From: Gammaproteobacteria bacterium
GTDB taxonomy: Bacteria; Pseudomonadota; Gammaproteobacteria; JAJPIJ01
Assembly (NCBI GenBank): GCA_046347035.1
Contig: JAXMGY010000002.1
Location: 24,552 to 88,551 of the forward strand
Length of the DNA stretch: 64,000 nucleotides
Reading direction: 5' to 3'
The notes beneath the pieces are model-generated. The model did not search any database. It worked only from the letters and a program-made list of their open reading frames with translations, and had not been told where the DNA came from. Of the stretch, positions 19,186 to 58,932 are shown one piece after another (the first letter of the stretch is position 1; each line of letters opens with the position of its first letter). The position numbers and the translations under genes were made by a program.

Positions 19186-21957
19186 CTATTCCTTGACCGA
19201 AATTAACGTCAAACTCGGTGCTGCTCCAACTCGAAAATTGTTCAACAACTCCGCGACTTCCGTAGACGGCACTGCGCGCGAGAAATAGAACCCCTGTCCG
19301 GCGTGACAACCCAGACGGCGCAGTTCTGCCAGTTGCGTCGTTGTCTCGATTCCCTCGGCAATTGTTGCCATACCGAGCGAATTGCCCATCGCCACAATCG
19401 CACGCACCAATGCATCACTATTGGCTTCTTCGGTAATCTTGCTGATAAACGAGCGATCGATCTTCAAGATATCGAAGGGGAATTGATGCAGGTAACTGAG
19501 CGCCGAATAGCCAGTGCCAAAATCATCCAGCGCCAGACGCACGCCAAGTTTTTTCAACGCTGACAAACGCCCGAGTGACCACTCGACGTTCTCCACCAGC
19601 ATGCTTTCTGTGATCTCCAAGACCAGCGACTCAGGTCGGATGCCGGAGTGGTGGATGATTTCCTGCAGTTCATCGACAAACCCCTGAGACTGCAGTTGGC
19701 GCGGGGAAATGTTGACGGAAACGTACTGCAGCGCGTCGCGTGGAAGTGATTCCTGCCATCTCCGACCTTGAGCGCACGCTTCAACCAGTACGCGCCGGCC
19801 AATTTGCACGATGAGGTCGCTGCCCTCGGCCACCGAGATGAAAGCACCCGGCGAAACCATGCCGCGCTGCGGATGCCGCCAGCGTACCAAGGCCTCGACG
19901 CCAATGATGGCATTGGTTTGTAGATCGATAACCGGTTGGTAGTGGGCGATGAATTCATCGGCCTGCAATCCACGCCTCACATCCATTTCCACTTCCAGAT
20001 GCTGCAGCACCTGCGCATGCATCGACGCTTCGAAGAATTCGTGACCGCCTTTGCCGCGAGCCTTGGCGCGATACATCGCCACGTCAGCATTGCGCAACAG
20101 ATCCTGTGTGTCGTCGCCCGGATTGGCGATGGCGATGCCGATACTGCCGCTGACAGTAACCGACTTGCCGGCGAGATAAACCGGGACATCGAGCGCATCG
20201 CTCATGCGCATAGCCAGTGTTGCCAGATCTGGCGTGGCTTTGAAGTCTTCGACCAACACAGCGAATTCGTCACCACCAAGGCGCGCAACGGTGTCATCGG
20301 GGCGCACCACGCGCCGCAGCCGCTCCGCCACCGCCATCAATAGATTATCGCCCATTTCATGACCGAGACTGTCGTTGATGGTCTTGAAATTATCGAGATC
20401 GACAAACATCACGGCCACTCGCGTTTCCATTCGCGCCACGCGCTGCAACGCCAACTGCACACGCTCGTTAAACAGATTGCGATTGGGTAACATGGTCAGC
20501 GGATCGTGGAAAGCCATATGGCGCAGGCGATCCTCCAGCCCGCGGCGATCAGTGACGTCGCGGCAGTTCAAGACCAGTCCACCCACTTCTTGGTCGGCTA
20601 TCAAGTTGGAAGCGATGATCTCCATGTGCTGCCAGGAATCATCTCGGTTACGCATGCGATACTCCACCGGCTCGCTCACACCTTGAGCGCTGCCCAGCTG
20701 GCGCAGAAACTCACCCATCGCGGGAATATCGTCGTGATGCATGAGCACCGCCAGGTTACAACCCTGTAAAGTCTCCGGCGGCCAACCCAACGTCCGTTCC
20801 ACCGACGGCGATGCAAAGCGCACTGCGCCGTCGGCATCCGTCACCAGCACCACGTCGGAGGAGTGACGAATCAATGTGCCAAAGCGATGCTCAACACGCC
20901 TCTCGGCCTGCGCCGCATGCAGACGTGCAATATCGCGCGCGGCGATGATCTGTCGTGCAATGACCAGGCAGGTCAACACGAACACGGTGACCAGCGGCAA
21001 CGGATTGGCGTCGCGTCCGCTGACGATGTAGTCGTGCGCCAACAATCCGTAGCCGGCGAACACTGCGATATAGGGAGCGATTCGGTATGGATACGGCTTG
21101 CGATCCGTGACTCTCTCTTCAAACTGTATTCCGCGCCGGTACTGATCGAGCGCGGCCAAAATGATGCAGGTGAAGGAAAGCAGAAACCAGATGTCAGTCA
21201 CGCCACCGGACTGGTAACTGCCAGAGGCCGTTTCCAGAATGAACTCAATATCGGCGATAAAAGTGAGTGCTTGTGCCAACAGCAACAGCAGCACCGGTGC
21301 GCTCAAGCCATGCTGCTGCCGCTTCAACAACACCGATACGATGCCAAAGACGAGCAGGCTATCGCCCAGCGGATAGGCCAAGGCGATTGCCAGATTGAAG
21401 CGGCTTTCTTCATCGGCGCCGACGTGCGGCAAAACGAAATAGGCGATGAATGCCAGTGCCGCCACCATCACCGTTGCCGCATCGAGCGCGAACTTTGTTT
21501 TTTCTCCCGCGCCGTGCAGCGGTTCCGACAGGAACAACAGGCCGATGAACATCGACGGATAGGCAATCAGGAAGAAGAAGTCCGCGATTGATGGCCAGGG
21601 TTCGATCTGAAGTACGCCTTCGTAGTAACTGAACAGGCAGTTACCCACCCAGGTCGAGAAGTAATACAACGCAATCAGCGCCCACGCACGGCGGGTGCGA
21701 GTCTGCAATCGCTTGTCACGCCAAACCGCAATTGAAAGCAGTGCCGCGAAAAAACCCAGCGGCAAATCGTAGAAAGTCAGCCAGCGCGACACCGCCTCGT
21801 GCTGCCATTGCGTTAACATCAGAGTCAACCAGGCAGCGATCCACAACAGCACCAAGCCAGCGGCGCGTTCGAGCCACGAGCCGCTGACAAGACCCCGAAG
21901 GGTGATTGGGCCCACTCTATCCCCCTCGATACCGCTTGAATTCAACAAGTTAGCCAT
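19186..21957 (-). CDS. membrane sensor PAS-GGDEF-EAL protein (c-di-GMP turnover)
   Basis: The 923-aa ORF has an N-terminal block of about 330 aa with multiple TM segments, then a PAS domain, a GGDEF domain (RPDD I-site 5 aa before LGGDEF) and an EAL domain (EALVRWRHPQRG, DDFGTGYS). Confidence 0.9.
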   Translation of the reverse strand: MANLLNSSGIEGDRVGPITLRGLVSGSWLERAAGLVLLWIAAWLTLMLTQWQHEAVSRWLTFYDLPLGFFAALLSIAVWRDKRLQTRTRRAWALIALYYFSTWVGNCLFSYYEGVLQIEPWPSIADFFFLIAYPSMFIGLLFLSEPLHGAGEKTKFALDAATVMVAALAFIAYFVLPHVGADEESRFNLAIALAYPLGDSLLVFGIVSVLLKRQQHGLSAPVLLLLLAQALTFIADIEFILETASGSYQSGGVTDIWFLLSFTCIILAALDQYRRGIQFEERVTDRKPYPYRIAPYIAVFAGYGLLAHDYIVSGRDANPLPLVTVFVLTCLVIARQIIAARDIARLHAAQAERRVEHRFGTLIRHSSDVVLVTDADGAVRFASPSVERTLGWPPETLQGCNLAVLMHHDDIPAMGEFLRQLGSAQGVSEPVEYRMRNRDDSWQHMEIIASNLIADQEVGGLVLNCRDVTDRRGLEDRLRHMAFHDPLTMLPNRNLFNERVQLALQRVARMETRVAVMFVDLDNFKTINDSLGHEMGDNLLMAVAERLRRVVRPDDTVARLGGDEFAVLVEDFKATPDLATLAMRMSDALDVPVYLAGKSVTVSGSIGIAIANPGDDTQDLLRNADVAMYRAKARGKGGHEFFEASMHAQVLQHLEVEMDVRRGLQADEFIAHYQPVIDLQTNAIIGVEALVRWRHPQRGMVSPGAFISVAEGSDLIVQIGRRVLVEACAQGRRWQESLPRDALQYVSVNISPRQLQSQGFVDELQEIIHHSGIRPESLVLEITESMLVENVEWSLGRLSALKKLGVRLALDDFGTGYSALSYLHQFPFDILKIDRSFISKITEEANSDALVRAIVAMGNSLGMATIAEGIETTTQLAELRRLGCHAGQGFYFSRAVPSTEVAELLNNFRVGAAPSLTLISVKE

Positions 21958-35719: not shown

Positions 35720-37464
35720 TCAGGCAAGCTCGCGGTTGGTGGGTTGCGGCTGCGGATTACCCGGCGCCAAATGCATCTCATGATGGCCTTTACCGGAAGC
35801 GATCATCGGATACACGTTCTCGGTCTGATCGGTGACGAAATCCATGAGCACCAGTTTATCCTTCATGTTTATGGCTTCCTTCAACGCCGAACGAACGTCT
35901 TTGACGTTTTCAACACGCATGCCGACGTGGCCGAACGCCTCGGCAAGCTTCACGAAATCCGGCAGCGCGTCCATGTATGAGTGCGAATAACGGCGATCGT
36001 AGAAGAATTCCTGCCACTGCCGCACCATGCCCATGTAACGATTGTTGAGATTGATGATCTTGATAGGCAGGTTGTACTGCAGCGCCGTCGACAGCTCCTG
36101 AATGCACATGACGAGACTGGCCTCGCCGGTGATACAACACACCACGCTGTTCGGAAATCCGAGCTGCACGCCCAACGCCGCCGGCATGCCAAAACCCATG
36201 GTGCCGAGCCCGCCTGAATTGATCCAGCGCCGCGGCTTGGCGAACTTGTAGTACTGCGCCGCCCACATCTGATGCTGCCCCACATCGGAGGTGATAAATG
36301 CATCGCCCTTGGTCACTTCGTACAACTCTTCAATCACAAACTGCGGCTTGATGACGTTGCTCTTGCGGTCATAACGCATGCAATCAAGCGAAGCCCACTC
36401 AGCAATCTGTTTCCACCACGGGTGCGTCTGGCGATCGAGCGGCTTGACCTCGGCCTCACGTAGCAGCTGATTCATCTCGCGCAGCACTTCACGCGCGGAA
36501 CCCACAATGGGCACGTCGACCGGCACATTCTTGGAGATAGACGACGGATCGATGTCGACGTGAATAATCTTGGCGTAGGGGCAGAACTTCTCCAGATTGC
36601 CGGTGACGCGATCATCAAAGCGCGCACCGACCGCCAGCAACACATCGCAGTTGTGCATGGCCATGTTGGCTTCGTAGGTGCCATGCATGCCCAGCATGCC
36701 TACGAATTGTTTGTCCGTGCCGGGATAGCCGCCTAGCCCCATCAGCGTATTGGTGATGGGATAACCACGATGAGATTGGCCAAACTCGGTCAAGTCCTCG
36801 GCGGCGTCGCAGAGAATAATGCCGCCGCCAGTAATACTATGGGCTTCTTCGCTTCCAGCAGCAATTGCACAGCTTTGCGGATCTGGCCAGGATGTCCCTT
36901 GCTCGTCGGTTTATACGAACGCATTTCAATATTGCGCGGGTAGTAATACTCGCAACTATCAGCCGTCACATCTTTCGGAATATCCACCACCACGGGACCT
37001 GGACGACCACTGGCAGCGATAAAGAACGCCTTTTTGATTGTCGGCGCCAGATCCTCGACCTTTTCCACTAGGAAATTGTGCTTTACGCACGGACGAGTGA
37101 TGCCGATGGAGTCGACTTCCTGGAATGCGTCATTGCCGATGAGGTGCGTGGGCACCTGGCCGGTGAACACCACCATCGGGATAGAATCCATGTAGGCGGT
37201 GGCAATGCCGGTGACGCAGTTGGTTGCGCCAGGGCCGGAAGTCACCAGCACCACGCCGGGCTTGCCAGTGGCGCGCGCGTAACCATCGGCCGCATGGGTC
37301 GCGCCTTGCTCGTGGCGAACGAGGATGTGCTTGACGGCTTCCTGCTTGAACAGTGCGTCATAGATGTGCAGTACGGCACCGCCTGGGTAGCCGAAGATGA
37401 ATTCCACGCCTTCGTCCTTCAATGCCTCGACGAAGATTTCCGCACCACGCATGCGCCTGCTCAC
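35720..37464 (-). pseudogene. ilvI: acetolactate synthase large subunit, single frameshift as given
   Basis: The pieces 36790..37464 and 35720..36793 are adjacent in different frames. The frames join as ...LLEAKKPIV / [38 protein letters not shown] around 36831..36837, consistent with one missing T in GTATT(T)ACT. Confidence 0.9.
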
Positions 37465-37671: not shown

Positions 37672-38418
37672 CTACTGCATGTGCTGGCCGCCGTTGATAG
37701 CAATGTTGGCGCCGGTAACGAAGGCTGCCTCGTCCGACGCGAGGTAAGCTACCAGGCCCGCCACTTCTTCCGGCAAACCGAGCCGGCCGACCGGGATCTG
37801 TGGCAGGATTTTTGAGTCCAGCACGTCCTTTGGAATGGCCGTGACCATCTTGGTGCCAATATAGCCGGGCGAGATGGTATTGACGGTCACGCCCTTCTTC
37901 GCCACTTCCAGCGCCAGCGCTTTGGTGAAGCCGTGCATGCCGGCCTTGGCCGCCGAGTAATTGGTTTGGCCGAATGCACCCTTCTGGCCATTAACCGAGG
38001 AAATATTCATGATGCGGCCCCAACCGCGATCAACCATGCCATCGCAGACCTGCTTGGTCATGTTGAAGCAGCTGTTGAGATTGGTGGTCATGACGGCCAG
38101 CCAGTCGGCCTCGGTCATTTTCTTGAAGGTGACATCCTTGGTGATGCCGGCGTTGTTAACCAGCACATCGACCGGCCCGGCTTGCTTGACCACCAGCGCA
38201 ACCGCCTCCGCACAGGAGGCATAGCTCGTTACATCGCAGGGCACGGCGATAAAGTCGTAACCAGCCGCTTTCATCTCCGCCAGCCATTCGCCGTGCTTGG
38301 TATTGCCTGGCGAGTAAGTCGCCGCAACCTTGTACTTCAAAGCTGCGAGCTTCTTACAAATGGCTTCGCCCAAACCGCCCATACCCCCAGTTACCAGTGC
38401 GACGCGCTGACCCATCAT
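37672..38418 (-). CDS. phbB: acetoacetyl-CoA reductase (SDR family, PhaB/PhbB type)
   Basis: The 248-aa ORF contains VALVTGGMGGLGEAICKKL, NNAGITKD and NYSAAKAGMHGFTKALALE. The full-length style matches PhbB. Confidence 0.8.
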   Translation of the reverse strand: MMGQRVALVTGGMGGLGEAICKKLAALKYKVAATYSPGNTKHGEWLAEMKAAGYDFIAVPCDVTSYASCAEAVALVVKQAGPVDVLVNNAGITKDVTFKKMTEADWLAVMTTNLNSCFNMTKQVCDGMVDRGWGRIMNISSVNGQKGAFGQTNYSAAKAGMHGFTKALALEVAKKGVTVNTISPGYIGTKMVTAIPKDVLDSKILPQIPVGRLGLPEEVAGLVAYLASDEAAFVTGANIAINGGQHMQ

Positions 38419-38700
38419 GCTCTCCTCAACTTGTCCGGATTTTAAATGGAAATGAAATAGGGACAGGCCACGATTTCAAAGTCAGAAAATCAGTGGTCGG
38501 ATTGTACAGCGGTCATTACTTCGATTGGTGGAAGCCAAACGGTGGAAACCGTGGCTCGTCCCCTATTTCACGGCCAATGATAACTCCAATGTCGCAATGT
38601 GCGACCGCATCAGATCAAGTTTTCAGGCAACGCACAAAGCACACAAAAATGGAAAGCCTATGATTAACTTAGACATCGGCCACCGCCGAGGCAGAAATAG

Positions 38701-38720
38701 AAAACCCCGCGAGCGCGGGG
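38701..38720 (-). terminator. rho-independent terminator downstream of PEP-CTERM gene 1
   Basis: The minus strand reads CCCCGCGCTCGCGGGG followed by TTTTCTATTTCT. Confidence 0.65.
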
Positions 38721-38747
38721 CTTATGCACCACCCTGTTCAGCGACAG

Positions 38748-39394
38748 TCAGGAAAGAGGAGTTTGACCACAGGCCCTTCTGCGGCCCATGCCTGCCAAAC
38801 CCAACAGCGCCGAACCCATGAGCCACACCGCCGCCGGCAGCGGAACTGGCGCTGCGATTCCGGGAATGCCACTGAGTTTGAAATCATCGACAGCCCAAAG
38901 GCCACTGGACAGATTCGCTCCCGCAGCATGCAGCTTCACGTTATGTGTTCCCGCCGCGAAGACTAGGCTTGGCAAGACGGTAGAATTCGTACCCCCGATA
39001 CCGCCATGGGTGGAACCACTGCCGAAACCGAATCCGTCAATGGACAACGACCACGCGGTCGGACCGAAGATGGTCGCGTCGAAGAACGACAAAGATGTGA
39101 ACGTTACGGTGAACCCTGCCGTGACGGTGAAACTAAAGGTGTAGTCGTTGCCTAAACCATTCCAACCCTTGCCCCAGACGAAGTCAAACAGCGTGGAAGA
39201 GCCACCGGTGTTGATAAAGGTTGGCGAACCGTTGCTCATAGACCACGGGCTTACAGAAGAAATCGCCGGGCCGAAGTTTGAAGATCCTGAGGCGGAACCA
39301 TTGTCGAAATTGAATTTGATGCTTGCCGCGCCTGCTGTGCCAGACGTGCACAGAAGCGCCAACCGGCAATCGCCGTCAGCAGCCTGAATCGCAT
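38748..39394 (-). pseudogene. PEP-CTERM (VPLPA-type) sorting-domain secreted protein, probable frameshift inside the signal peptide
   Basis: ORF 38748..39416 starts at a TTG and lacks a signal peptide. An ATG at 39394 with the Shine-Dalgarno GGAGGAG opens MRFRLLTAIA... in another frame, which would join to ...LALLCTSGTAGAASIKF. The C-terminus is PVPLPAAVWLMGSALLGLAGMGRRR. Confidence 0.75.
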
Positions 39395-39574
39395 TTTCTC
39401 CTCCACTACATATCAACGCTGGCGTTCGGGTCTGGAAATCCAGCCCGTGCTCTTTTTCGTTGGGGGTCCAGCGGTCCAGGTGGGTCGGCCTGAAAGCCTT
39501 GCGGGTGCGTCCTGCACCTCAGGGTTTATCGCTCCCGGCGGTTTGTATCCGCAAAGGGGTGTTCAGATTGTCGG

Positions 39575-39614
39575 AATATACGACGGCGGCACTTACAAAT
39601 CGCTTACAGATTCG
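39575..39614 (-). promoter_or_regulatory. tandem heptamer box plus -10 upstream of PEP-CTERM gene 1
   Basis: The minus strand reads CGAAT-CTGTAAG-cgat-TTGTAAG-tgccgccgtcg-TATATT. Confidence 0.6.
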
Positions 39615-39640
39615 AAGATTCCTGTCCCAAACAGGTCAAG

Positions 39641-39669
39641 AAATAACAAACCCCGCCGAGGCGGGGTTT
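39641..39669 (-). terminator. rho-independent terminator downstream of PEP-CTERM gene 2 (part of a 46-nt repeat)
   Basis: The minus strand reads AAACCCCGCCTCGGCGGGGTTT followed by GTTATTT. Confidence 0.75.
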
Positions 39670-39723
39670 GCTGCACTGCCATGTGTGAACCGTTCTACAG
39701 AAGCCGATGATATAGGTTCCGAA

Positions 39724-40353
39724 TCAGGCGCGCTTTCTGCGGCGACCGATGTCAACCAAGCCGAGTAGCGCTGACCCCATCAGCCACGCAGCCGCGGGAA
39801 CAGGAACTGCTGCAATTCGAATCTGTTTAATGTCCGCAATATTGACGTTCGATGTAAACGATACACCGTGGAATACTTCACCGGTTGTCGCAAGTAACGT
39901 AATGAAGTTACCACCGTTCTTGTCGAGGTTTACAGTTGCTGGCGTGAAGTTGATCGACCCTGGAGACGCAGCGAAGGTAACAGTGCCATTTGCAGCCGCG
40001 TCGATGTTCAATACCAATTGCGTAAAGCCGGTATTATCGGCGAACGCGATATTAATAAATGTGTTCGCATCGATCACGCCATCTTGATCCGCTGTATCGA
40101 CGGTTGCTTGACCACCGGAAGCGGTCAGCAGCTCACCTGAGCTGGGTTTGGAGATCGACACTCCCTTACCGTGCGCGCTTTCCAAACAACCTTGAACCGT
40201 ATAACCAGATCCAATACCCACACCGGCATTGCAGTTGTTGAAAATAACGTTGTCGCCACCCGGCGTATTGCCAAGCGATACAGTGGCTGCGCTCGCGAGA
40301 CTCGGTAACAGCGCAAACCCTGCCAAACTTAATGCAAATGATCTGGTTAGCAT
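39724..40353 (-). CDS. PEP-CTERM (VPLPA-type) sorting-domain secreted protein
   Basis: ORF 39724..40425, trimmed to the ATG at 40353 (MLTRSFALSLAGFALLPSLASA signal peptide, GGGA Shine-Dalgarno). The C-terminus is AVPVPAAAWLMGSALLGLVDIGRRRKRA. Confidence 0.8.
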   Translation of the reverse strand: MLTRSFALSLAGFALLPSLASAATVSLGNTPGGDNVIFNNCNAGVGIGSGYTVQGCLESAHGKGVSISKPSSGELLTASGGQATVDTADQDGVIDANTFINIAFADNTGFTQLVLNIDAAANGTVTFAASPGSINFTPATVNLDKNGGNFITLLATTGEVFHGVSFTSNVNIADIKQIRIAAVPVPAAAWLMGSALLGLVDIGRRRKRA

Positions 40354-40444
40354 GCTTCCCTCTCTCCCTATTCTTAATTCGTCAGCAACGAGATCCAACG
40401 GCAACGCGCAGCCCTGTGTGTCCAAAGCATTTCTGAGTGAGTGA

Positions 40445-40484
40445 AGAATACTGTCAAGGCACTTACAAACCGCTTACAAATTCG
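40445..40484 (-). promoter_or_regulatory. tandem heptamer box plus -10 upstream of PEP-CTERM gene 2
   Basis: The minus strand reads CGAAT-TTGTAAG-cggt-TTGTAAG-tgccttgacag-TATTCT. Confidence 0.6.
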
Positions 40485-40571
40485 CAGATGATACTGAACG
40501 CGTTAATTTTCACGCTTTCGTCCTATCGATTCCGCGTTGTAGCTATACAATGCGAAGAACGTCGAGCCATT

Positions 40572-40600
40572 AAATAACAAACCCCGCCGAGGCGGGGTTT
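40572..40600 (-). terminator. rho-independent terminator downstream of PEP-CTERM gene 3 (second copy of the 46-nt repeat)
   Basis: The hairpin and T-rich tail are the same as at 39641..39669. Confidence 0.75.
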
Positions 40601-40644
40601 GCTGCACTGCCATGTGCGAAAACTCAATCCTTTTTGCTTCCCTG

Positions 40645-41466
40645 CTAGGCGCTCCCTCGCCGTCCTTTCCCTATCATTCCAAACAAAGCTGATCCGAGCA
40701 GCCACAGCGCCGGCGGCAGCGGCACTGGCGCGGAGTCCCGCAGATTTGCTGTACCGGCAAGCGATATGCGATCCAACCCTACTGCCGTTCCAGTGAGCTG
40801 ATTTTCGTCGCCATCATCATCCTCACGCTCGCCCTCATGTTCTTCCGAGCGGCCGTTTTCGTTAAGCAGGAAGGTGAGTGTGTAGCTTTGACCTGCAATA
40901 AGGTTCGTGAAATTTATCGGGCCACTACTGCCACCGAGCTGTGAACCGAGGAAAGTAACCGGGAACCCACTTAGATCGCCAGGTGCGTTGGTCCCGCCGC
41001 TCAGCGATACAGAAAATCTATCGCGGTTTGCACTATTACCCGCAGCCGGACCATCGAAAGCGTAGAGGAAACTCAAATCCAGGTTGTATGCGAGCACGTT
41101 CCGGCCTGTTATGGCGGTCGGCAAAGTAAATGAATACGCAATAGAGAAGGTTCCAGCACTGTCTTCGTTCCGCGAGATCCTTCCAGTGCGATCTCCGAGC
41201 ACGGCGAACGAACTGGCAAAGACATTTCCGAATCGATCGTGTTGTGACCCGCTCCCATCGATCGTGTTGTTTTGCGCACGCACATTGATCGCGTCGTGCG
41301 ATCCCGTTCCACCCTCAACCCAACCCGACACGTCGTTACCCACGGTATCGAAATCGCCCAAAGTGTTAACGTCGATAATGTTGATGGGCACGGTGGATGC
41401 AAACGCCGCGCTGCTCGCCAGCATTGCCACTGCACCTAATGTCACTGCAAAAATCTGTTTACGCAT
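40645..41466 (-). CDS. PEP-CTERM (VPLPA-type) sorting-domain secreted protein
   Basis: The 273-aa ORF has the signal peptide MRKQIFAVTLGAVAMLASSAAFA and an AAGGAG Shine-Dalgarno. An acidic stretch (EEHEGEREDDDGDE) precedes the C-terminus APVPLPPALWLLGSALFGMIGKGRR. Confidence 0.8.
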   Translation of the reverse strand: MRKQIFAVTLGAVAMLASSAAFASTVPINIIDVNTLGDFDTVGNDVSGWVEGGTGSHDAINVRAQNNTIDGSGSQHDRFGNVFASSFAVLGDRTGRISRNEDSAGTFSIAYSFTLPTAITGRNVLAYNLDLSFLYAFDGPAAGNSANRDRFSVSLSGGTNAPGDLSGFPVTFLGSQLGGSSGPINFTNLIAGQSYTLTFLLNENGRSEEHEGEREDDDGDENQLTGTAVGLDRISLAGTANLRDSAPVPLPPALWLLGSALFGMIGKGRRGSA

Positions 41467-41643
41467 GAACGCCCACAGCTCCTTATATCCGCTGAATAGA
41501 AGGCCAACCTAAATCCTCTCTGGATTGGCCCAGGACTTACTGGCTTGGGCCGTAGCGGGTGCGTATTCGCACCTCTCTTGAACAACATGCGCGGGTTCCT
41601 TGGCGCAAATGCTGGACGTGACCAGCCGGAACTCGTGCCATGA

Positions 41644-41683
41644 ATATTACGGCCGCAGCGCTTACAAACGACTTACAAATTCG
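41644..41683 (-). promoter_or_regulatory. tandem heptamer box plus -10 upstream of PEP-CTERM gene 3
   Basis: The minus strand reads CGAAT-TTGTAAG-tcgt-TTGTAAG-cgctgcggccg-TAATAT. Confidence 0.6.
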
Positions 41684-41703
41684 AGAGTTGGTGGTTGTGG
41701 GAA

Positions 41704-41726
41704 CTTACAATTCGGTTACCGATTGG
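41704..41726 (-). promoter_or_regulatory. additional degenerate heptamer pair upstream of the gene 3 box
   Basis: The minus strand reads CCAAT-CGGTAAC-cgaa-TTGTAAG, with the same 7+4 architecture, 32 nt upstream of the proximal pair. Confidence 0.4.
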
Positions 41727-41807
41727 CGGTTTGGTGCGGCGATTGGTGCTGGAATGCCCAATGCCGCACACTTCGGCAGCAGGAAGGGAAAGTCAGTAGT
41801 CGGACGG

Positions 41808-41830
41808 CCAAAACACACCCAAGGTGTGCC
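41808..41830 (-). terminator. rho-independent terminator downstream of the SARP-like regulator gene
   Basis: The minus strand reads CACACCTTGGGTGTG followed by TTTTGG, 11 nt after the stop codon. Confidence 0.55.
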
Positions 41831-41840
41831 CGAGCACCAC

Positions 41841-42998
41841 TCAGGCCTTGGGTATGGCACCGTCGGATGGGGGCGTAAATACCGTGCTCAGCGTTTCGCC
41901 ACCAACCGTGACGTTGCCGTTGGCCGGCAGTCCGCGCGCGACCGCCATGCGTGCGCGTGCATCGTTAATCTCCTGCACCTTGCGCCGGATCTCGGCGTAC
42001 AGGCGTTGCGTTTCGGCGGCCGGCGCCACCTCCAGCATCTTGTGCAGCATGATTCGGCATCGTCGATAGAGCGTAATCACATCGCTGTAACGTTCAAGCG
42101 CCGCGTACACCGTCATCAAACGACGGTAGAGTTCTTCGGCCAGTGGATCAATTTCAATCGCACGCTGATAAACCGGGATGGCGAGCTCGCGCTGGCCAAG
42201 CTTCTCGCAACGCTCGGCATAGGCGCGCACGGCGCGCACGAATTTGCTACGCAGACGTTCGCGCATGGCCGACGCCCAACGCGTGTCGTCCTGCGGCAGA
42301 AAAGCGCCTTGATAGAGATCCAGGGCGGCATCGAAACGCTCGACGCTATTTTCCAACCACGCCGAGTCCGATTCGCCGGTGTCGAGTTTTTTCAGCGCAT
42401 CCTCGAACGCGTGAATATCCACCCAGCAATGCAAGGGGTCCAGACTGAGACGACCATTACGCGCGACGATGGCGTCGTGAACCACAAGTAATTTACGCAG
42501 ACGATGCACGGTGACGTTCATCGATTGTACGGCGGTCGCGCCATCGGCCTCCGGCCATAGATCCGAGGCCAGTGTATCGGTGGAAACTTCATGACCACCG
42601 CGGGCGACAAGCGCCTTAAGCAGCAGCAGCGGTTTGCGCGGCTGTTTGCGCATGGCGCCGATCGGTTCGCCGTCGATGCTGATCGCGAAACCACCCAAAG
42701 TGTAAATACGAATGCGGGGCTCGCGACCTTCAACCGACTGTGCATCCATCTGTCGAATCGCGTGCAATTCTTGAACACCGGCGCGGCGAGTAAGAACGTC
42801 CAAACCACGCGCCACACCCAACAACAACGCGCGGATTTCTTCATGCGGAAGTTCGGCAAACTCTGGCAGCTGCTCAATCAGGCTACGCGTTTCCTCGATC
42901 CAGCGTGAAAGCCGCACGCTGTCCCAGCCGCCAGCTTGCTTCGCATCTTTGCGCATTGAATCAGTGATTCCGCTCGTTGTGCCCACAGGTCTGGACAT
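41841..42998 (-). CDS. SARP-like transcriptional activator (OmpR/PhoB-type winged helix plus BTAD domain)
   Basis: The 385-aa ORF has a winged-helix segment: IRIYTLGGFAISIDGEPI...RKPLLLLKALVARGGHEVSTDTLASDLWPEADGATAVQSMNVTVHRLRKLL. A BTAD-like helical repeat follows: WVDIHAFEDAL...YQGAFLPQDDTRWASAMRERLRSKF...AIEIDPLAEELYRRLMTVYAALERYSDVITLYRRCRIML. There is no receiver domain. Confidence 0.75.
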   Translation of the reverse strand: MSRPVGTTSGITDSMRKDAKQAGGWDSVRLSRWIEETRSLIEQLPEFAELPHEEIRALLLGVARGLDVLTRRAGVQELHAIRQMDAQSVEGREPRIRIYTLGGFAISIDGEPIGAMRKQPRKPLLLLKALVARGGHEVSTDTLASDLWPEADGATAVQSMNVTVHRLRKLLVVHDAIVARNGRLSLDPLHCWVDIHAFEDALKKLDTGESDSAWLENSVERFDAALDLYQGAFLPQDDTRWASAMRERLRSKFVRAVRAYAERCEKLGQRELAIPVYQRAIEIDPLAEELYRRLMTVYAALERYSDVITLYRRCRIMLHKMLEVAPAAETQRLYAEIRRKVQEINDARARMAVARGLPANGNVTVGGETLSTVFTPPSDGAIPKA

Positions 42999-43183
42999 CT
43001 AGTGCTCGCCGTGATCGAATTGGCTTGAAGACGGGCTGTCGCGCAGCCGCGCCAGCCCTACCGGTAGCGGCTTCATTCTGCTTCTTTTCGCCGATCGATG
43101 CCACGATGAATGCCTGTGAGAAATCACACATTTGGCGATTCCGAAGGGCGCCGACCGCACATTTGCGGCTGAAAATCAGTGCC

Positions 43184-44380
43184 TCAGGCGATGCTGACCC
43201 GTGCAATTCGGCGCTTGCCGACCTGAATGAGGTAGCTCTTGCCAACCTCAAGCGTCATGGCTCGGTCGCTTGCTCGCTCGCCATTCACGCGCACTGCGTT
43301 TTGACCAATCTGACGCACGGCTTCGGTCGTGCTTGGAACCAGGCCCGCTTCCTTGAGCACGTAGGCGATCTGCGCTTTACCATCGCGCGCGGCAACGGTG
43401 ATCTCGTCGATTTGATCCGGCAAGCCGCCATCGCGGAAACGGCGAAAAAATTCTTCCTTGGCTTGCTCGCCAGCTGCCGCACCGTGAAAGCGCGCCACCA
43501 GTTCTACGGCGAGATCGATCTTGGCATCGCGTGGATTTGCTCCCCGCGCCACCGACCGCTTGGTCCGTTCAATGTCAACAAGCGGGCGGAAACTCAATAG
43601 TTCGTAGTAGCGCCACATCAAGGTATCGCTGACGGACATCACCTTGCCGAACATCTCGCTGGGCGAATCGGTGATACCAATGTAGTTGCCAAGCGACTTT
43701 GACATTTTTTGAACGCCGTCCAAACCTTCCAGCAGCGGCATGGTGATGACCACCTGCGTTTCCTGGCCGTATTCCTTCTGCAGCTGGCGCCCCATCAGCA
43801 GGTTGAACTTCTGATCCGTGCCGCCGAGTTCGACATCGGCCTTCATCGCCACCGAGTCATAGCCCTGTACCAGCGGGTAGAGGAACTCGTGAATTGCTAT
43901 CTGCTGACCGTTCGTGAATCGCTTGTGGAAATCGTCACGCTCAAGCATGCGCGCGACATTCTCCTTGGCTGCCAGCCCAATCAAATCGGCGGCGCTAAAC
44001 TTGTCCATCCATGCGGAGTTGAAACAGATTTCGGTGCGCGCTGGATCGAGAATCTTGAAGATCTGCTCCTGATACGTGCGAGCATTGACGGCAACTTCCT
44101 CGCGCGAAAGCGGCTTGCGGGTGACGTTCTTGCCGGTGGGATCGCCAATCATGCCGGTGAAATCACCGATGAGAAACATCACGTGGTGCCCGAGCTGCTG
44201 GAACTGCCGCAGCTTGTTGATGAGCACGGTGTGGCCGAGATGTAGATCCGGCGCGGTGGGATCGAACCCGGCCTTTACGCGCAGCGGTTTGCCGCGCTTG
44301 AGCTTGACGACGAGATCTTTCTCCAACAGCACTTCGACTGCGCCACGGCCGATCTCACTCAGGGCTTCCTCAATATGCAT
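43184..44380 (-). CDS. tyrS: tyrosine--tRNA ligase (type 2)
   Basis: ORF 43184..44440, trimmed to [18 protein letters not shown]. It has the HLGH and KMSKS motifs and a C-terminal S4-like domain. Confidence 0.93.
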
Positions 44381-44522: not shown

Positions 44523-46139
44523 GTGTTCCAGACCCGCGAAATCAGTTACGACTACAAGATTTGCATCGGCTGGGGGGAAGAGCGGCGGCGTTTGCGTCGC
44601 CGCCGTCTGGCGCTGGCGTCGGCCGCCCCGTTAGTTGTGGCACTGATGGCGGGCATGGCTTCCGACCATCTTTCCAATCATCAATTTCATCTGCCGCCTT
44701 GGGATAAACCGCTGGTCGATCAGAAACCCAGCCCGGAGAAATTGCTGCCCATTCGCACTACTTCCGAGGCAGCAATTGCGTATCAGGCGGTGCTGTCCGA
44801 ACTGGAGCCAGTGAGCAACCCGTTCACGCCCAATCACATCATCGGACCCACGCCTGCCTTTCCTGGCACGCAAGAAGACGCAAACGCTGAATCGGTTCCG
44901 GCGAACGAACTGTCCGCGGCGGAACCTGACGCTGAAGCCACACCGGCCGCTGAGGCGGCAAGCACTGACGCTAACTGGCAGACCATTAAGGTCCGCGCTG
45001 GCGACAGCTTATCCACCATTTTTCAACGTTTGGGCCTGAGCGGTAATGAGCTGGATCGCATCATGGGGCTGGGTGCCGTCACTGCGGCGCTGAAAACGCT
45101 GCGACCCGAGTCCAATCTTCGCTTCCGCATCAATGGCGGCTCGCTGAGCGAAATGGTGCATGAAATTGATGCCGCTCATACGCTGCACGTCCGCAATCAG
45201 GAGGGCGGTTACAGCGCCGAGACGATCGCCGAAAAGCTCGAAACGCGAACCACGCAGGCGAGCGGCGTGATCACCAGTTCGCTGTTCGAGGCTGGTCAAA
45301 GCGCCGGCCTGTCGGATACCGCGATCATGAACATGGCCAACATCTTCGACTTTGACATCGATCTGGCGCTGGATATTCGTGAGGGCGATCGCTTCACCGT
45401 CGTGTATGAGGAAATCTACAAGGACGGTAAGAAGATCAAAGACGGCAATATTCTCGCCGCCGAGTTCGTCAACAAGGACAGGTTTATCGCGCGGTGCGCT
45501 ACGACGACAAGCAAGGCAACGCGGAATATTACCGACCGGATGGCCGCACCCTGCGCCGAGCCTTCATTCGCACACCCGTGGCTTTCACGCGCATCACGTC
45601 CAGGTTTGGCCTTCGCAATCACCCCATCCTCAATCGAATTCGAAATCACAAAGGCGTTGACTATGCCGCCCCAACCGGGACGCCAGTTAAAGCCACGGGC
45701 GATGCGAAAGTTGCCTTTGCCGGCTGGCAGGGGATATGGCCGCGTCATTCAATTGCAGCACGAAGGCGGTTACATGACGGTGTATGGACACCTGTCGCGG
45801 TTTGCCAGCAGCGCGAAGGTTGGCCAACGTGTGCACCTGGGCGAAGTGATTGGCTACGTCGGAATGACAGGACTGGCAACGGGCCCCCATCTTCACTACG
45901 AATTCCGCGTCAAGGGCGTACACGTCGATCCGTTAACTGTGAAGTTACCGCAAGCGCTGCCAATTGCGCGCGAGCGGCTTGCCGATTTCAAAGCCAAGAC
46001 CCAACCAACGATCGCACTGCTCGACAAGGCCAGTACGCTCGCTGCAACAAATTTCGGCAAACAGCAGGCGGCCGCAGCGCCTGAATCGAATTCTCCCGAA
46101 GCACGCAATCAGGTCGTCGCCAGCGCGGCGGCACATTAA
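44523..46139 (+). pseudogene. OapA/LysM-like plus M23 peptidoglycan DD-metalloendopeptidase (MepM/YebA-like), two compensating frameshifts as given
   Basis: The 538-aa ORF looks intact, but codons between about 45477 and 45732 are out of frame. The overlapping ORF 45494..46084 carries the conserved [17 protein letters not shown]...[45 protein letters not shown]. The main frame resumes with [24 protein letters not shown]...[10 protein letters not shown]. Confidence 0.85.
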
Positions 46140-56584: not shown

Positions 56585-58932
56585 ATGCTCAGAACCATTC
56601 GCGGTCGCATTCTGCTCATGCTAGTTGCCATGTCTGTTGCAGCGGGCTTGGGCTTGTTTGCGCTGGAAAAAATGCAGCAGAGCCAACTGGCCATCGCCGC
56701 AGGCATGCAATCGGAGGAGTTTCGCGATCAGCTGCAACGCAGTATGGAGCTGTTTGGCGCCACCCACGCCAGCCATACCTTTGACTACACCTACTGGGAC
56801 GAGATGGTGGATCTGGTCACCACACGCGACGAAAAGTGGGCGCACGACAACATCGAAAGCAGTATTTCCACGATGGGTGTTTCCGCAGCCTGGGTGCTCA
56901 ATCCGGCCCTTGAAGTTGCCTACGCCACAACACTGGGGATGCCCAATCCCGAAGACAAATCGCTTCCAACAGGCATCGACATGGCTCAGTTGAAGTGGCA
57001 ATTGCAGCGACAGCCGTTCCAGCACTTCTTCGTCACCGATAGCCGCGGATTACTGGAATTCCGAACAGCGCCGATTCAGCCCACCACCGATGCCGAACGC
57101 AAGACTCCGGCACAAGGTTACTACCTCACGGCGAAGCTTTGGGATAAGGCCTATCAGGATCACATCGGCACGTTTCTCAACGGCCACGTTTGGGCGAGCC
57201 CACAAAGCGATTCGCCCGACCCCCACGATGCAAACGCCGGCCATGTACAGATCCGTTTGTCCCTGCCCGGGCTGGACGGAAAACCCACCAGCTGGCTTTT
57301 TGCTCATCGCGATTTCGCACCGATAGATCTCTGGCAACGTTACCTGCATCTGCAAGTCATTCTGTATCTCATCATGAGCGGAATACTGCTCGCCGCCTTC
57401 TACCTTGTTTTGACGCGCCTAGTGAGCAAACCGCTGAATCTGGTGAATAACGCACTTCGTGGTGACAACAGTGCAATCAATGGACTGGCTGCAACCGGAA
57501 CCGAATTCTGTGCGATTGCTGGCTTGCTCAACGACAACCGAATTCAGCGTGTCGCATTGGAAGAAGAAAACCTGCAGCGCCGGGCGTTGCAGGAGGAGCT
57601 TGAACACTTCGCGAATCACGACCCGTTGACTGGTTTAGCCAATCGCAAACTTTTCACCGAAGTACTGAACAACCGGATCGCCGATGCCGCGCATTTTGAC
57701 CGCAAGCTGGCGGTCCTCTACATCGATCTCGATCGATTTAAGAACATTAACGACATGCACGGGCACCCGCTCGGCGATCGGCTGCTGTGTGTTGTCGCTG
57801 ACCTGCTGCGCAACTGTCTCGGCCCAGATGGTCTCGCAGCCCGCATTGGAGGCGATGAATTCCTGCTCTGTGTAGGTCCATACGATGAAGTGGGGGAGGT
57901 TCTTACACTCGCGGAAGGACTGCTGCAATCATTGTCGAAACCTTTACGCATTGATAACAACGAGGCGTTCACTGCCGCCAGCATCGGCATCAGTCTCTTT
58001 CCTCAACACGGCGATGACGCAGGTAAACTCATCGCCTATGCCGATCAGGCAATGTATCGTGTCAAGCACAGCGGCCGCAACGGCTACAAAGTAGTGGATC
58101 CGGAGTTGATGAACGAAGAAGTCACGCGCCTCTCCATTGAGGCGCAGTTGCGACGCGTTCTCGAGCGCGGTGAACTTTACCTGCAGTATCAGCCACGCAT
58201 GGATCGGCGCAGCGGCGAAATTGTAGCGGTGGAAGCCCTTTTGCGCTGGAAGCATCCTGAGCGTGGAAACATATCGCCCGACGTGTTCATTCCCCTGGCC
58301 GAGGAGAACGGGTTGATCCAACCCATCGGCCTGTGGGTTTTGCGTGAGGCTTGCAGGCAGCATGTGAACTGGCAGAGCGAAGGACTGGGCCTTTCCGCAT
58401 GGCAGTTAACCTGTCGGCAAAACAACTTCGGTCGCCTAGCCTCGCCGAAAACATCTTGGCGATTGTCAATGAAACCGGAATCGAGCCGCATTTCCTGGAA
58501 TTGGAGTTGACTGAAAGCGCGCTCGACACCAATCACACCGCCACCGCGGCATTTATGAATTCCATGGCAGAACGCGGGATTCGATTTGCCATCGATGATT
58601 TTGGCGTCGGTTACTCAAGCTTGGGTTATCTCAAGGACCTTCCCGTAAACACACTGAAGATCGATCGCTCGTTCCTGCGTGGCGCTGAGCACAATCCCGC
58701 ACAATCGCGCCTGATCGCCGGCATCACCTCACTGGCGCACGGATTGGGCGTCGCGGTTGTTGCCGAAGGTGTTGAAAATTCAGAGCAGTTGAATTTGGTA
58801 AGCGTACATGGCTGCGACGAAATGCAAGGCTATCTCATCAGCCGTCCGCTGCCAGCCAGTGAAATCGCACCATTTATCGCGCGCGTCAGCGAACGTCCGG
58901 CACATTTGCGCATCGCCGTTTACCGCGCCTAG
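56585..58932 (+). pseudogene. membrane sensor GGDEF-EAL protein, single frameshift in the EAL domain as given
   Basis: The pieces 56585..58510 and 58351..58932 are in different frames. They join as ...NWQSEGLG / PFRMAVNLSAKQL around 58389..58392, consistent with a CCC read as CC. GGDEF (RIGGDEF) and EAL (VEALLRWKHPERG, DDFGVGYS) are intact. Confidence 0.88.

Follow-up and report, generated by a model that had tools for sequence, protein, structure and literature searches.

What controls the expression of three adjacent PEP-CTERM genes is the question raised by this locus, since all three are preceded by the same pair of short direct repeats on the minus strand of a 64-kb window (the whole stretch of DNA analysed, 64,000 nucleotides). 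The genes and the terminators that follow them are:

38748..39394, minus strand: gene 1, VPLPA-CTERM protein (TIGR03370, 30.2 bits, cut-off 25.35)
39724..40353, minus strand: gene 2, secreted 209-aa protein with a VPLPA-CTERM tail (TIGR03370, 27.3 bits, cut-off 25.35)
40645..41466, minus strand: gene 3, secreted 273-aa protein with a PEP-CTERM-type tail (PVPLPPALWLLGSALFGMIGKGRRGSA) that matches other PEP-CTERM tails (BLASTP)
38702..38723, minus strand: intrinsic terminator after gene 1
39641..39685, minus strand: intrinsic terminator after gene 2
40572..40616, minus strand: intrinsic terminator downstream of gene 3, a 45-nt sequence identical to the gene 2 terminator

A sorting domain, i.e., a PEP-like motif, a transmembrane helix and a basic tail, was found in each of genes 1–3 (gene 3 carries PVPLPPALWLLGSALFGMIGKGRR), and no NCBIfam sorting-domain model reached its cut-off for gene 3. 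Gene 1 starts at an ATG at 39394 preceded by a GGAGGAG ribosome-binding site, and a frame shift lies inside its signal peptide.

Repeat pairs upstream of the PEP-CTERM genes

Read on the minus strand, the three upstream regions have the pattern CGAAT-YTGTAAG-N4-TTGTAAG-N11-TAnnnT in common, and a fourth, degenerate pair lies upstream of gene 3:

39575..39614, minus strand: predicted promoter/operator of gene 1, with CGAAT, CTGTAAG (39609..39603), cgat, TTGTAAG (39598..39592), N11 and the -10-like hexamer TATATT (39580..39575)
40445..40484, minus strand: predicted promoter/operator of gene 2, with CGAAT, TTGTAAG (40479..40473), cggt, TTGTAAG (40468..40462), N11 and the -10-like hexamer TATTCT (40450..40445)
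41644..41683, minus strand: predicted promoter/operator of gene 3, with CGAAT, TTGTAAG (41678..41672), tcgt, TTGTAAG (41667..41661), N11 and the -10-like hexamer TAATAT (41649..41644)
41700..41725, minus strand: degenerate upstream pair, CGGTAAC-cgaa-TTGTAAG (heptamers 41721..41704)

These positions agree exactly with the original prediction for the three main pairs, and its degenerate fourth pair was also recovered. No -10-like hexamer was found downstream of the latter, which may be an auxiliary or decayed site.

Such pairs are rare in this DNA. Allowing up to two mismatches, TTGTAAG-N4-TTGTAAG has four matches in the 64-kb window against 0.16 expected (none of 100 shuffles reached four), and all four fall within the PEP-CTERM region, where three correspond to the sites and the fourth is an overlap in a shifted register. 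With a weight matrix built from 11 sites and scanned over the window and 20 shuffles, the sites of genes 1, 2 and 3 scored 42.0, 42.2 and 35.8 bits, respectively, and the degenerate pair 22.5 bits vs. a shuffle maximum of 20.7; the next best score across the 64 kb was only 11 bits. Both approaches thus bear out the earlier claim, made by eye, that the window holds no further copy, and the matrix, which had been proposed at the same time, indicates that the sites are not scattered there.

Two other parts of the description had to be amended. The flanking sequence was said to be unconserved, which is mostly true, but the upstream regions of genes 1 and 2 share the 45-nt terminator block, and the leaders of genes 1 and 3 have a short hairpin in common (GAGGTGC...ACGCACCCGC). 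The repeat was described as 7+4 nt; its 11-bp period stands, but a better unit is the 9-mer RT-YTGTAAG followed by 2 nt.

A SARP-like regulator and its relatives in other lineages

Directly upstream of this region, on the same strand, lies a gene whose product is a candidate binder of the repeats:

41841..42998, minus strand: SARP-like regulator, OmpR-type winged helix followed by a bacterial transcriptional activator domain (BTAD)

The protein comprises a helical N-terminal extension (~aa 16–82), a winged helix (~aa 95–190) and the BTAD (aa 193–338); the public gene call begins at the ATG at 42956 (371 aa). The BTAD model PF03704 is matched over profile positions 1–146 of 146 (E=5e-25, 89 bits), Pfam Trans_reg_C reaches 24 bits (slightly below the 26.2-bit cut-off), and no Response_reg match, i.e., no receiver domain, was detected with Pfam. 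Residues 93–347 align with EmbR residues 8–263 (E=5.5e-8) and the protein also aligns with AfsR (E=3e-4), both domains being covered. An AlphaFold2 model has pLDDT >90 for ~aa 95–355, including the winged-helix region, and the six best PDB matches returned by Foldseek are EmbR and AfsR SARP modules (E 2e-11 to 1e-9, 248–281 aligned columns), with TM 0.69 over the entire AfsR chain; the top EmbR and AfsR structures are transcription-initiation complexes. The helical extension of ~90 aa is conserved among the regulators compared. The genomic neighbours are tyrS, a short-chain reductase gene, ilvI and the PEP-CTERM genes.

To look for the same arrangement elsewhere, orthologous loci were retrieved by protein and not by motif, and counted where the contig keeps a co-directional downstream gene; the P0003 locus, whose contig stops 45 nt past the stop codon, was left out as uninformative. 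The four orthologues counted (P0007, P0012, P0005 and P0011; 44–56% identity) reside, like the others, in gammaproteobacterial MAGs, and all four have YTGTAAG-N4-TTGTAAG just past the stop codon and before the next gene, with TAnnnT 10–11 nt after the pair in three of them. The next gene is complete in two of these loci and is a PEP-CTERM gene in both, namely at L001 (P0007), where it is of the VPLPA-CTERM type and its product is 36% identical to that of gene 1 over 201 aa, and at L031 (P0005). The same order of regulator, site and PEP-CTERM gene was seen at L015, a locus found by motif. Around this common scheme there is some variation: the -10 at L004 is poor (TGGCCT), the recognition helix is divergent and the site canonical at L029, and at L023 the main site is preceded, at a distance of 165 bp, by a second, weak one (18 bits), comparable to the degenerate pair of the window. 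Together with the SARP architecture seen in sequence and predicted fold, this co-occurrence across lineages supports the earlier nomination of the 41841..42998 product as the binder, and from it we infer that this regulator probably both binds the repeats and activates through them.

Searches that started from the motif gave 12 matches in the genome collection and 10 in the metagenome, and this total of 22 is close to our estimate for chance. In five cases (L011, L015, L022, L023 and L029) the match immediately follows a BTAD gene, and in one (L024) it precedes a PEP-CTERM gene. The genome collection alone was estimated to yield ~17 chance matches vs. the 12 found, only two of which are true orthologous sites; among the 10 metagenome matches, L020, L021, L027 and L028 resemble chance, and L025 and L026 may be either chance matches or true sites. 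Two further related regulators, P0010 (L005–L007, with a convergent neighbour) and P0018 (L036), have no such site adjoining them. L001 and L015 also contain PEP-CTERM genes of the choice-of-anchor C/DUF642 type in the vicinity of the regulator; these are without a site, so the regulon looks local.

A distant paralogue clade, with the helix NAFEITLHRLRK or KSFDITLHRLRK, has a shifted site, ATCCGTAGG-N2-ATCTGTARG, which keeps the 11-bp period and the 11-nt offset, here to TAGACT or CATTGT. By this comparison, recognition helix and half-site co-vary between clades.

These data bear on two other readings of the repeats. One is that they are a neutral leftover of a tandem cassette duplication, or a small repeat element, and play no part in regulation, as could be imagined for three adjacent genes of which two intergenic regions contain an identical 45-nt terminator, so that some sequence exchange has occurred. 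However, BLASTP shows the three target genes to have only a 25–40-aa sorting tail in common, the rest of their coding regions being almost unalignable, so a duplication relic does not account for the conserved sites. The recurrence of motif and -10 offset in lineages with regulators of just 44–56% identity contradicts it as well, and the motif is not scattered in the window or in the collections; we therefore find this reading scarcely credible.

The other is that the repeats are true Pho boxes, or sites of another OmpR-family response regulator encoded elsewhere, which would place the genes under phosphate or two-component control. The consensus of the E. coli Pho box is CTGTCAT-N4-CTGTCAT. 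Like the sites described here, Pho boxes are tandem repeats with an 11-bp period and a CTGT start that replace the -35 element ~10–11 bp before the -10, and the winged helix with which PhoB binds them falls in the same class of folds. The half-site here is YTGTAAG, however, and agrees with the Pho-box consensus at no more than ~4 of 7 positions; synteny between the motif and BTAD regulators recurs across several lineages and architectures, these regulators have no receiver domain (PhoB has one), genome-wide matches adjoin BTAD genes, and the linked genes are not related to phosphate. This makes control of the Pho type very unlikely, and it is where the original prediction, which had likened the geometry to both Pho boxes and SARP sites, does not hold: the likeness to SARP sites, with the repeat in the place of a -35 element, stands, and that to Pho boxes is undone by the difference in sequence and by a linked regulator that lacks a receiver domain.

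Promoter geometry and alternative promoter types

Although TAnnnT was never included in any search pattern for the sites, it lies exactly 11 nt past the proximal heptamer in 8 of the 11 distinct sites of the cross-lineage set, and two others have a good -10 at 10 nt (TATAAT and TAAAAT). If the count begins where the 11-bp unit ends, and not at the end of the heptamer, the 11-nt offset (10 nt in two lineages) corresponds to 8 nt. A fixed -10 offset across lineages is typical of activator-dependent promoters. At the three promoters of the window, candidate -35 elements match TTGACA at 0–2 of 6 positions (spacers of 16–18), and no consensus sigma-70 promoter was found in 38400..43300, which suggests that the three promoters should be weak without help.

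This bears on the possibility that the same SARP-like protein binds the repeats as a repressor and blocks RNA polymerase from the -35 region, the classic position of a repressor. A precedent exists in Geobacter GSU1771, which is reported to repress pgcA, pulF and relA, and the sign of regulation here is thus not certain. Promoters that would be weak on their own, an offset to the -10 that is fixed across lineages, and a predicted fold that matches AfsR as seen in an activation complex argue instead for activation, and we regard repression as unlikely.

Other sigma factors could in principle account for the conserved elements. Some ECF sigma factors use TGTAAC-type -35 and CGTA-type -10 elements, and many of the sites have cGTA immediately before or at the -10 position, so that TGTAAG might be read as the -35 and CGTA as the -10 of an ECF-type promoter. 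The distance from heptamer to CGTA is 9–10 nt (proximal) or 20–21 nt (distal), however, vs. the 16–17 nt needed; both heptamers are conserved to an equal degree, as expected for a tandem binder; and the sites show no consistent linkage to an ECF sigma gene. Such a promoter is accordingly highly improbable.

For most proteobacterial PEP-CTERM genes, including single-gene units with long upstream regions, the published scheme is PrsK/PrsR/PrsT with sigma-54, in which an NtrC-type enhancer-binding protein acts on a 17-nt motif ending in TTTACA, followed after ~63 nt by a -24/-12 promoter (Haft et al., 2006). That element resembles the one described here in being conserved DNA before single-gene PEP-CTERM units with long leaders, recognised through comparative genomics. 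Yet its 17-nt motif and sigma-54 promoter are absent from the three upstream regions: none contains TTTACA, and none has a coding-strand match to TGGCAC-N5-TTGCW at up to two mismatches, a pattern whose count over the whole window is at chance level (50 vs. 48). The probability that the known element operates here is close to nil.

The presumed 5' UTRs of genes 1 and 3 are 171–174 nt long. A riboswitch or attenuator in these leaders was considered and dropped, as their folding is no more stable than that of shuffled sequences (z = -0.8 and -1.0). Rfam returned nothing at the gathering score in the region (E up to 1) or in the whole window, and no tRNA was found in the window. The region search gave just sub-threshold Rfam matches, which were driven by the terminators.

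Proposed mode of control and comparison with known systems

We consider it likely, from the comparative evidence above, that the three sites are SARP-type, activator-dependent sigma-70 promoters served by the adjacent regulator. Each PEP-CTERM gene would then form a transcription unit by itself, closed by its own terminator and driven by a promoter made of a -10-like TAnnnT, no -35 box and, in place of the latter, two head-to-tail 11-bp units RT-YTGTAAG-nn. Assuming a transcription start ~7 nt past the hexamer, the repeat units would cover roughly -43 to -22, where each unit would be occupied by one of two adjacent copies of the 41841..42998 product, which would recruit RNA polymerase or adapt it in the manner of AfsR at the afs box. 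The signal to which the system responds would perhaps be sensed through the conserved helical N-terminal extension.

Members of the SARP family (AfsR, ActII-ORF4, DnrI and RedD, with EmbR as a structural relative) likewise combine an OmpR-type winged helix with a BTAD. Their sites consist of two 11-bp repeats, the first 8 bp of each being contacted, and overlap the -35 region (PMC10936776). In published cases the direct repeats are 11 or 22 bp apart with the 3' repeat classically 8 bp from the -10, and the afs box spans -40..-19. The sites described here share the two tandem 11-bp direct repeats (~8–9 conserved and 2–3 free bases), a predicted overlap with the -35 region and the want of a good -35 box. 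They differ in half-site (YTGTAAG here, TCGAG-like in SARP boxes) and in the distance from the 3' heptamer to the -10, which is 11 bp rather than 8 bp but comes to 8 bp when measured from where the 11-bp unit ends; the registers are thus close without being identical, with a difference of 1–3 bp from published SARP cases. As for the residues that contact bases in AfsR, the arginine equivalent to R92 is invariant among the regulators compared, within HRLRK, whereas T88 is replaced by a valine in the regulator of this window. The additional N-terminal extension is a further difference, as is the setting, which is gammaproteobacterial MAGs and PEP-CTERM surface or secreted targets instead of actinomycetes and clusters for antibiotics and secondary metabolites.

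The nearest precedent outside Actinobacteria is GSU1771 of Geobacter sulfurreducens, a SARP-type regulator whose binding to promoters is proven by EMSA. Its deletion lowered the expression of several PEP-motif exosortase substrates and changed that of epsH, and besides repressing the genes named above it is reported to activate others; the study gave no consensus site and did not tie the protein directly to PEP-CTERM promoters. GSU1771 carries a receiver domain at its N-terminus and is global in its effects (cytochromes, pili and biofilm), whereas the regulator described here has no such domain, appears to act locally and comes with a defined predicted operator. Our literature search returned no paper combining PEP-CTERM with BTAD, and only the two GSU1771 studies for PEP-CTERM and SARP.

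SARPs are regarded as peculiar to actinomycetes and as bound up with the making of antibiotics, and it was not until 2023–2024 that their "sigma adaptation" mechanism was solved. A survey of biosynthetic clusters cautioned that proteobacterial proteins matching its SARP profile might fall outside the typical SARP regulators, since most of them are without the HTH or BTAD domain (PMC7040171). Here, a proteobacterial protein with the SARP fold is accompanied by a clear, phylogenetically conserved predicted operator of the same architecture, which offers a directly testable case for the SARP mechanism in Gram-negative bacteria with a housekeeping-type -10. The pair of regulator and operator also provides a handle on when PEP-CTERM surface proteins are made, and its small size (a 22-bp operator and a small regulator) could make it a portable activator-promoter pair.

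Haft et al. (2006) stated that further regulators and motifs were left to find, many PEP-CTERM genes being without the PrsR/sigma-54 element, and a candidate regulator can now be proposed for this gap. The best reading of the sequence data is that PEP-CTERM genes are here under a second scheme of regulation, distinct from PrsK/PrsR/sigma-54. Somewhat more tentatively, although we lean towards it, the regulators may form a sizeable non-actinobacterial SARP-type clade with a DNA code of its own (a pair of RT-YYGTARG units with an 11-bp spacing, 10–11 nt before the -10) and hundreds of relatives in environmental metagenomes, many of them from Gammaproteobacteria such as Sulfuricaulis-like lineages. 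Regulator, operator and a gene for a secreted or PEP-CTERM protein would be packed together as a compact module, giving a second, sigma-70/SARP-based control of exosortase substrates that is independent of PrsK/PrsR/sigma-54, and in some lineages the operator would lie within the last six codons of the regulator gene.

Repeat pairs and PEP-CTERM genes in the window

Re-reading of the minus strand returned exactly the sequences and coordinates of the original prediction for the sites preceding genes 1, 2 and 3, three neighboring PEP-CTERM genes, with each site carrying a distal and a proximal YTGTAAG heptamer (as seen from the -10) followed by a -10-like hexamer.

Repeat pairs in the window
39614..39575, minus strand: gene 1 site, CGAAT-CTGTAAG-cgat-TTGTAAG-N11-TATATT
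40484..40445, minus strand: gene 2 site, CGAAT-TTGTAAG-cggt-TTGTAAG-N11-TATTCT
41683..41644, minus strand: gene 3 site, CGAAT-TTGTAAG-tcgt-TTGTAAG-N11-TAATAT
41721..41704, minus strand: degenerate pair, CGGTAAC-cgaa-TTGTAAG

Allowing up to two mismatches, the heptamer pair occurs four times in the 64-kb window (0.16 expected), always in this region. With a weight matrix derived from 11 independent sites, the three sites reach 36-42 bits, the degenerate pair 22.5 bits, and the next best match in the 64 kb 11 bits (shuffle maximum, 20.7). When the three upstream regions are aligned, a conserved island of ~45 nt stands out, which runs from CGAAT to the end of the -10 hexamer. Two earlier descriptions need amending: the repeat, read as a heptamer plus four bases, is better taken as a 9-mer (RT-YTGTAAG) plus two free bases, and the flanks, described as not conserved, include for genes 1 and 2 an intrinsic terminator of 45 nt, the same in both, upstream of the sites. 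This block (CACATGGCAGTGCAGCAAACCCCGCCTCGGCGGGGTTTGTTATTT) follows gene 2 (39641..39685) and gene 3 (40572..40616), themselves barely related, has only these two copies in the window, and could stem from local gene conversion or belong to a terminator-promoter cassette.

Putative target genes
40645..41466, minus strand: gene 3, secreted protein with PEP-CTERM/VPLPA-CTERM tail
39724..40353, minus strand: gene 2, secreted protein with PEP-CTERM/VPLPA-CTERM tail, passes TIGR03370
38748..39394, minus strand: gene 1, secreted protein with PEP-CTERM/VPLPA-CTERM tail, passes TIGR03370

By BLASTP, these genes have little in common beyond a sorting tail of 25-40 residues and, judging from their sequences, are no recent duplicates of one another. 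A duplication relic is ruled out by this coding-region divergence and by conservation across lineages. Each gene has its own terminator and is therefore a single-gene unit, as are most PEP-CTERM genes (Haft et al. 2006). The cluster neighbors are housekeeping genes (tyrS, a short-chain reductase, ilvI, an M23 peptidase and anmK).

Gene 1 appears frameshifted within its signal peptide (39360..39394, minus strand): the ATG at 39394, after a GGAGGAG ribosome-binding site, reads MRFRLLTAIAGW..., the long ORF lies in another frame (...LALLCTSGTAGAAS), and an extra T in GGTTGG would bring both frames together. The acetolactate synthase large subunit (35720..37464) is split into two ORFs overlapping at 36790..36793, and the N-terminal catalytic part of the M23 peptidase (44523..46139) lies in a different frame (ORF 45494..46084). 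These broken housekeeping genes suggest indel errors in the assembly, so that the frameshift in gene 1, too, may be spurious and gene 1 not a pseudogene.

Genes 1 and 3, whose leaders are long, share a short leader hairpin, GAGGTGC-(loop)-(A)CGCACCCGC (39500..39519 and 41555..41575, minus strand), that the shorter leader of gene 2 lacks. As wholes, these two leaders showed no unusual structure, and a leader RNA element found no support. Elsewhere in the window are two large GGDEF-EAL signaling proteins (19186..21957 and 56585..58510), one with PAS and one with CHASE4; surface proteins are commonly under cyclic-di-GMP control.

The adjoining regulator and its orthologous loci

The gene adjoining the three PEP-CTERM genes (41841..42998, minus strand) encodes the candidate regulator. 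Its BTAD domain is full-length (E=5e-25), its winged helix falls narrowly short of the Pfam cut-off, and the protein aligns over both domains with the actinomycete proteins EmbR (E=5.5e-8) and AfsR (SARP module, E=3e-4). An AlphaFold2 model (26 homologues) has high confidence between residues ~95 and ~355, and its six best PDB matches are EmbR and AfsR SARP chains from transcription-initiation complexes (E 2e-11 to 1e-9; TM 0.69 across the full AfsR chain). At the position of the base-contacting R92 of AfsR, the recognition helix (AVQSMNVTVHRLRKLL) carries an arginine that never varies across the family; a valine takes the place of AfsR T88. A helical N-terminal extension of ~90 residues, conserved among orthologues, is not shared by small SARPs.

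Metagenomes contain many homologues of the regulator, listed by JGI as SARP family activators, and the closest ones on usable contigs come from gammaproteobacterial MAGs. Loci were fetched by protein, which makes the comparison blind to the motif, and the test set comprised the four orthologues whose co-directional downstream gene was still on the contig (P0007, P0005, P0012 and P0011, at 56, 55, 44 and 44% identity to the regulator). In all four, YTGTAAG-N4-TTGTAAG-YGC lies at or just past the regulator stop codon. Where complete, the downstream gene is a PEP-CTERM gene (L001 and L031, the loci of P0007 and P0005), as it is at L015, a locus found through the motif. At these three loci (L001 11003..11023, L015 3987..4007, L031 1562..1582), both heptamers form the last six codons and stop of the regulator (GGA TCT GTA AGC GGT TTG TAA, ...GSVSGL*), so that the putative operator of the downstream gene is embedded in the regulator coding sequence. 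No site was found beside the regulator gene of P0018, nor next to that of P0010, whose neighboring gene is convergent; the P0003 contig ends 45 nt past the stop and is uninformative.

In a more distant, Sulfuricaulis-like clade (~40% identity, 250-268 aa), the recognition helix reads NAFEITLHRLRK or KSFDITLHRLRK, and the regulator stop is followed by ATCCGTAGG-ct-ATCTGTAAG or ATCCGTAGG-tc-ATCTGTAGG, again with an 11-bp period and with CATTGT, CATTCT or TAGACT 11 nt further on. Helix and site thus vary together in this clade, within a fixed architecture.

Promoter architecture and predicted mode of regulation

Although TAnnnT was part of no search pattern, 8 of 11 distinct sites have it exactly 11 nt past the proximal heptamer, and two more have a very good -10 at 10 nt (TATAAT in L033, TAAAAT in L029). 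With a spacer of 16-18 nt, the window's -35 candidates share just 0-2 of the 6 TTGACA positions, and a consensus promoter scan of the region found nothing. Published SARP sites have the same build: two 11-bp direct repeats, each contacted over its first 8 bp with the remaining 3 left free, form a box that overlaps the -35 region in promoters whose -35 element is poor, and there two protomers sit side by side, replace sigma region 4 and touch several RNA polymerase subunits (PMC10936776). Most likely, then, the two units of each site would each take up one copy of the regulator, switching on three sigma-70 promoters that are otherwise dead; in this scheme, we infer regulator binding, its activating effect, the start points of transcription and the signal it responds to. 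Repression by the regulator itself is possible, as Geobacter GSU1771 both activates and represses, but fits poorly with promoters that have no -35 box.

The original prediction had likened the geometry to both Pho boxes and SARP sites. The SARP likeness holds for regulator and site alike (domains, predicted fold, tandem 11-bp repeats), whereas a real Pho box is ruled out, since the sequence, the linked regulator (without a receiver domain) and the linked genes all differ. An ECF sigma promoter is ruled out by spacing, and the PrsR/sigma-54 element of PEP-CTERM genes (Haft 2006) is absent.

On the structural criteria of modeled fold, domain order and site architecture, the regulator is a SARP. 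It departs from known members in its setting (Gammaproteobacteria rather than actinomycetes), its targets (exosortase substrates rather than antibiotic clusters), its half-site sequence, its N-terminal extension and a register shifted by a few bp: 11 bp separate the heptamer from the -10, against 8 bp in classical SARPs, and counting from the end of the 11-bp unit gives 8 bp, near the classical register without being identical.

SARPs are described as mainly actinomycete proteins (PMC10936776), and in a survey of biosynthetic clusters most proteobacterial SARP-profile matches were without an HTH or BTAD domain, hence the conclusion that they may not be typical SARP regulators (PMC7040171). Our literature search found one studied SARP-like protein outside Actinobacteria, Geobacter GSU1771, which has a receiver domain, for which the study consulted reports no consensus site, and whose deletion lowers several PEP-motif exosortase substrates. 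The search found no paper linking BTAD with PEP-CTERM, and further PEP-CTERM regulators and motifs were said to be still undiscovered (Haft et al. 2006). As a comparative prediction, the proposed regulator-operator scheme is well supported, moderately surprising and readily testable.

Distribution of the motif

Searching 185,579 species genomes and the JGI metagenomes with an extended pattern gave 12 and 10 matches, respectively, about the number estimated for chance. Five directly follow a BTAD gene (L011, L015, L022, L023 and L029, the regulators of L023 and L029 being larger TPR-BTAD proteins) and one lies upstream of a PEP-CTERM gene (L024), so the motif is not a generic repeat, an outcome that the original prediction had named as refuting it.

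A near-perfect look-alike (GAATCTGTAAGaggtTTGTAAGTGCC, 37 bits) occurs in a Firmicute, Lachnospiraceae bacterium AC2029 (L019 288..313, JNLK01000001.1), with TATCCT 11 nt past the proximal heptamer and a 181-aa secreted protein ~70 nt downstream; the site is at the contig start and the gene upstream is off the contig. TTGTAAG units at 11-bp spacing were also seen at L009 315..340, L013 3639..3664 and L012 2219..2255, with two or three units upstream of an asd-like gene (MKQSVGLVGW...) in two betaproteobacterial MAGs and three units in AT-rich DNA of a Rhodospirillales MAG; chance, or binding of other winged-helix regulators, could account for them. At two Sulfuricaulis-like loci (L034 6898..6919, L037 4898..4919), a 268-aa SARP-like paralogue with its repeat pair lies ahead of a 70-aa ORF, and a 262-aa ORF and a family-2 glycosyltransferase come next, which suggests that this clade controls cell-envelope/exopolysaccharide genes more broadly.
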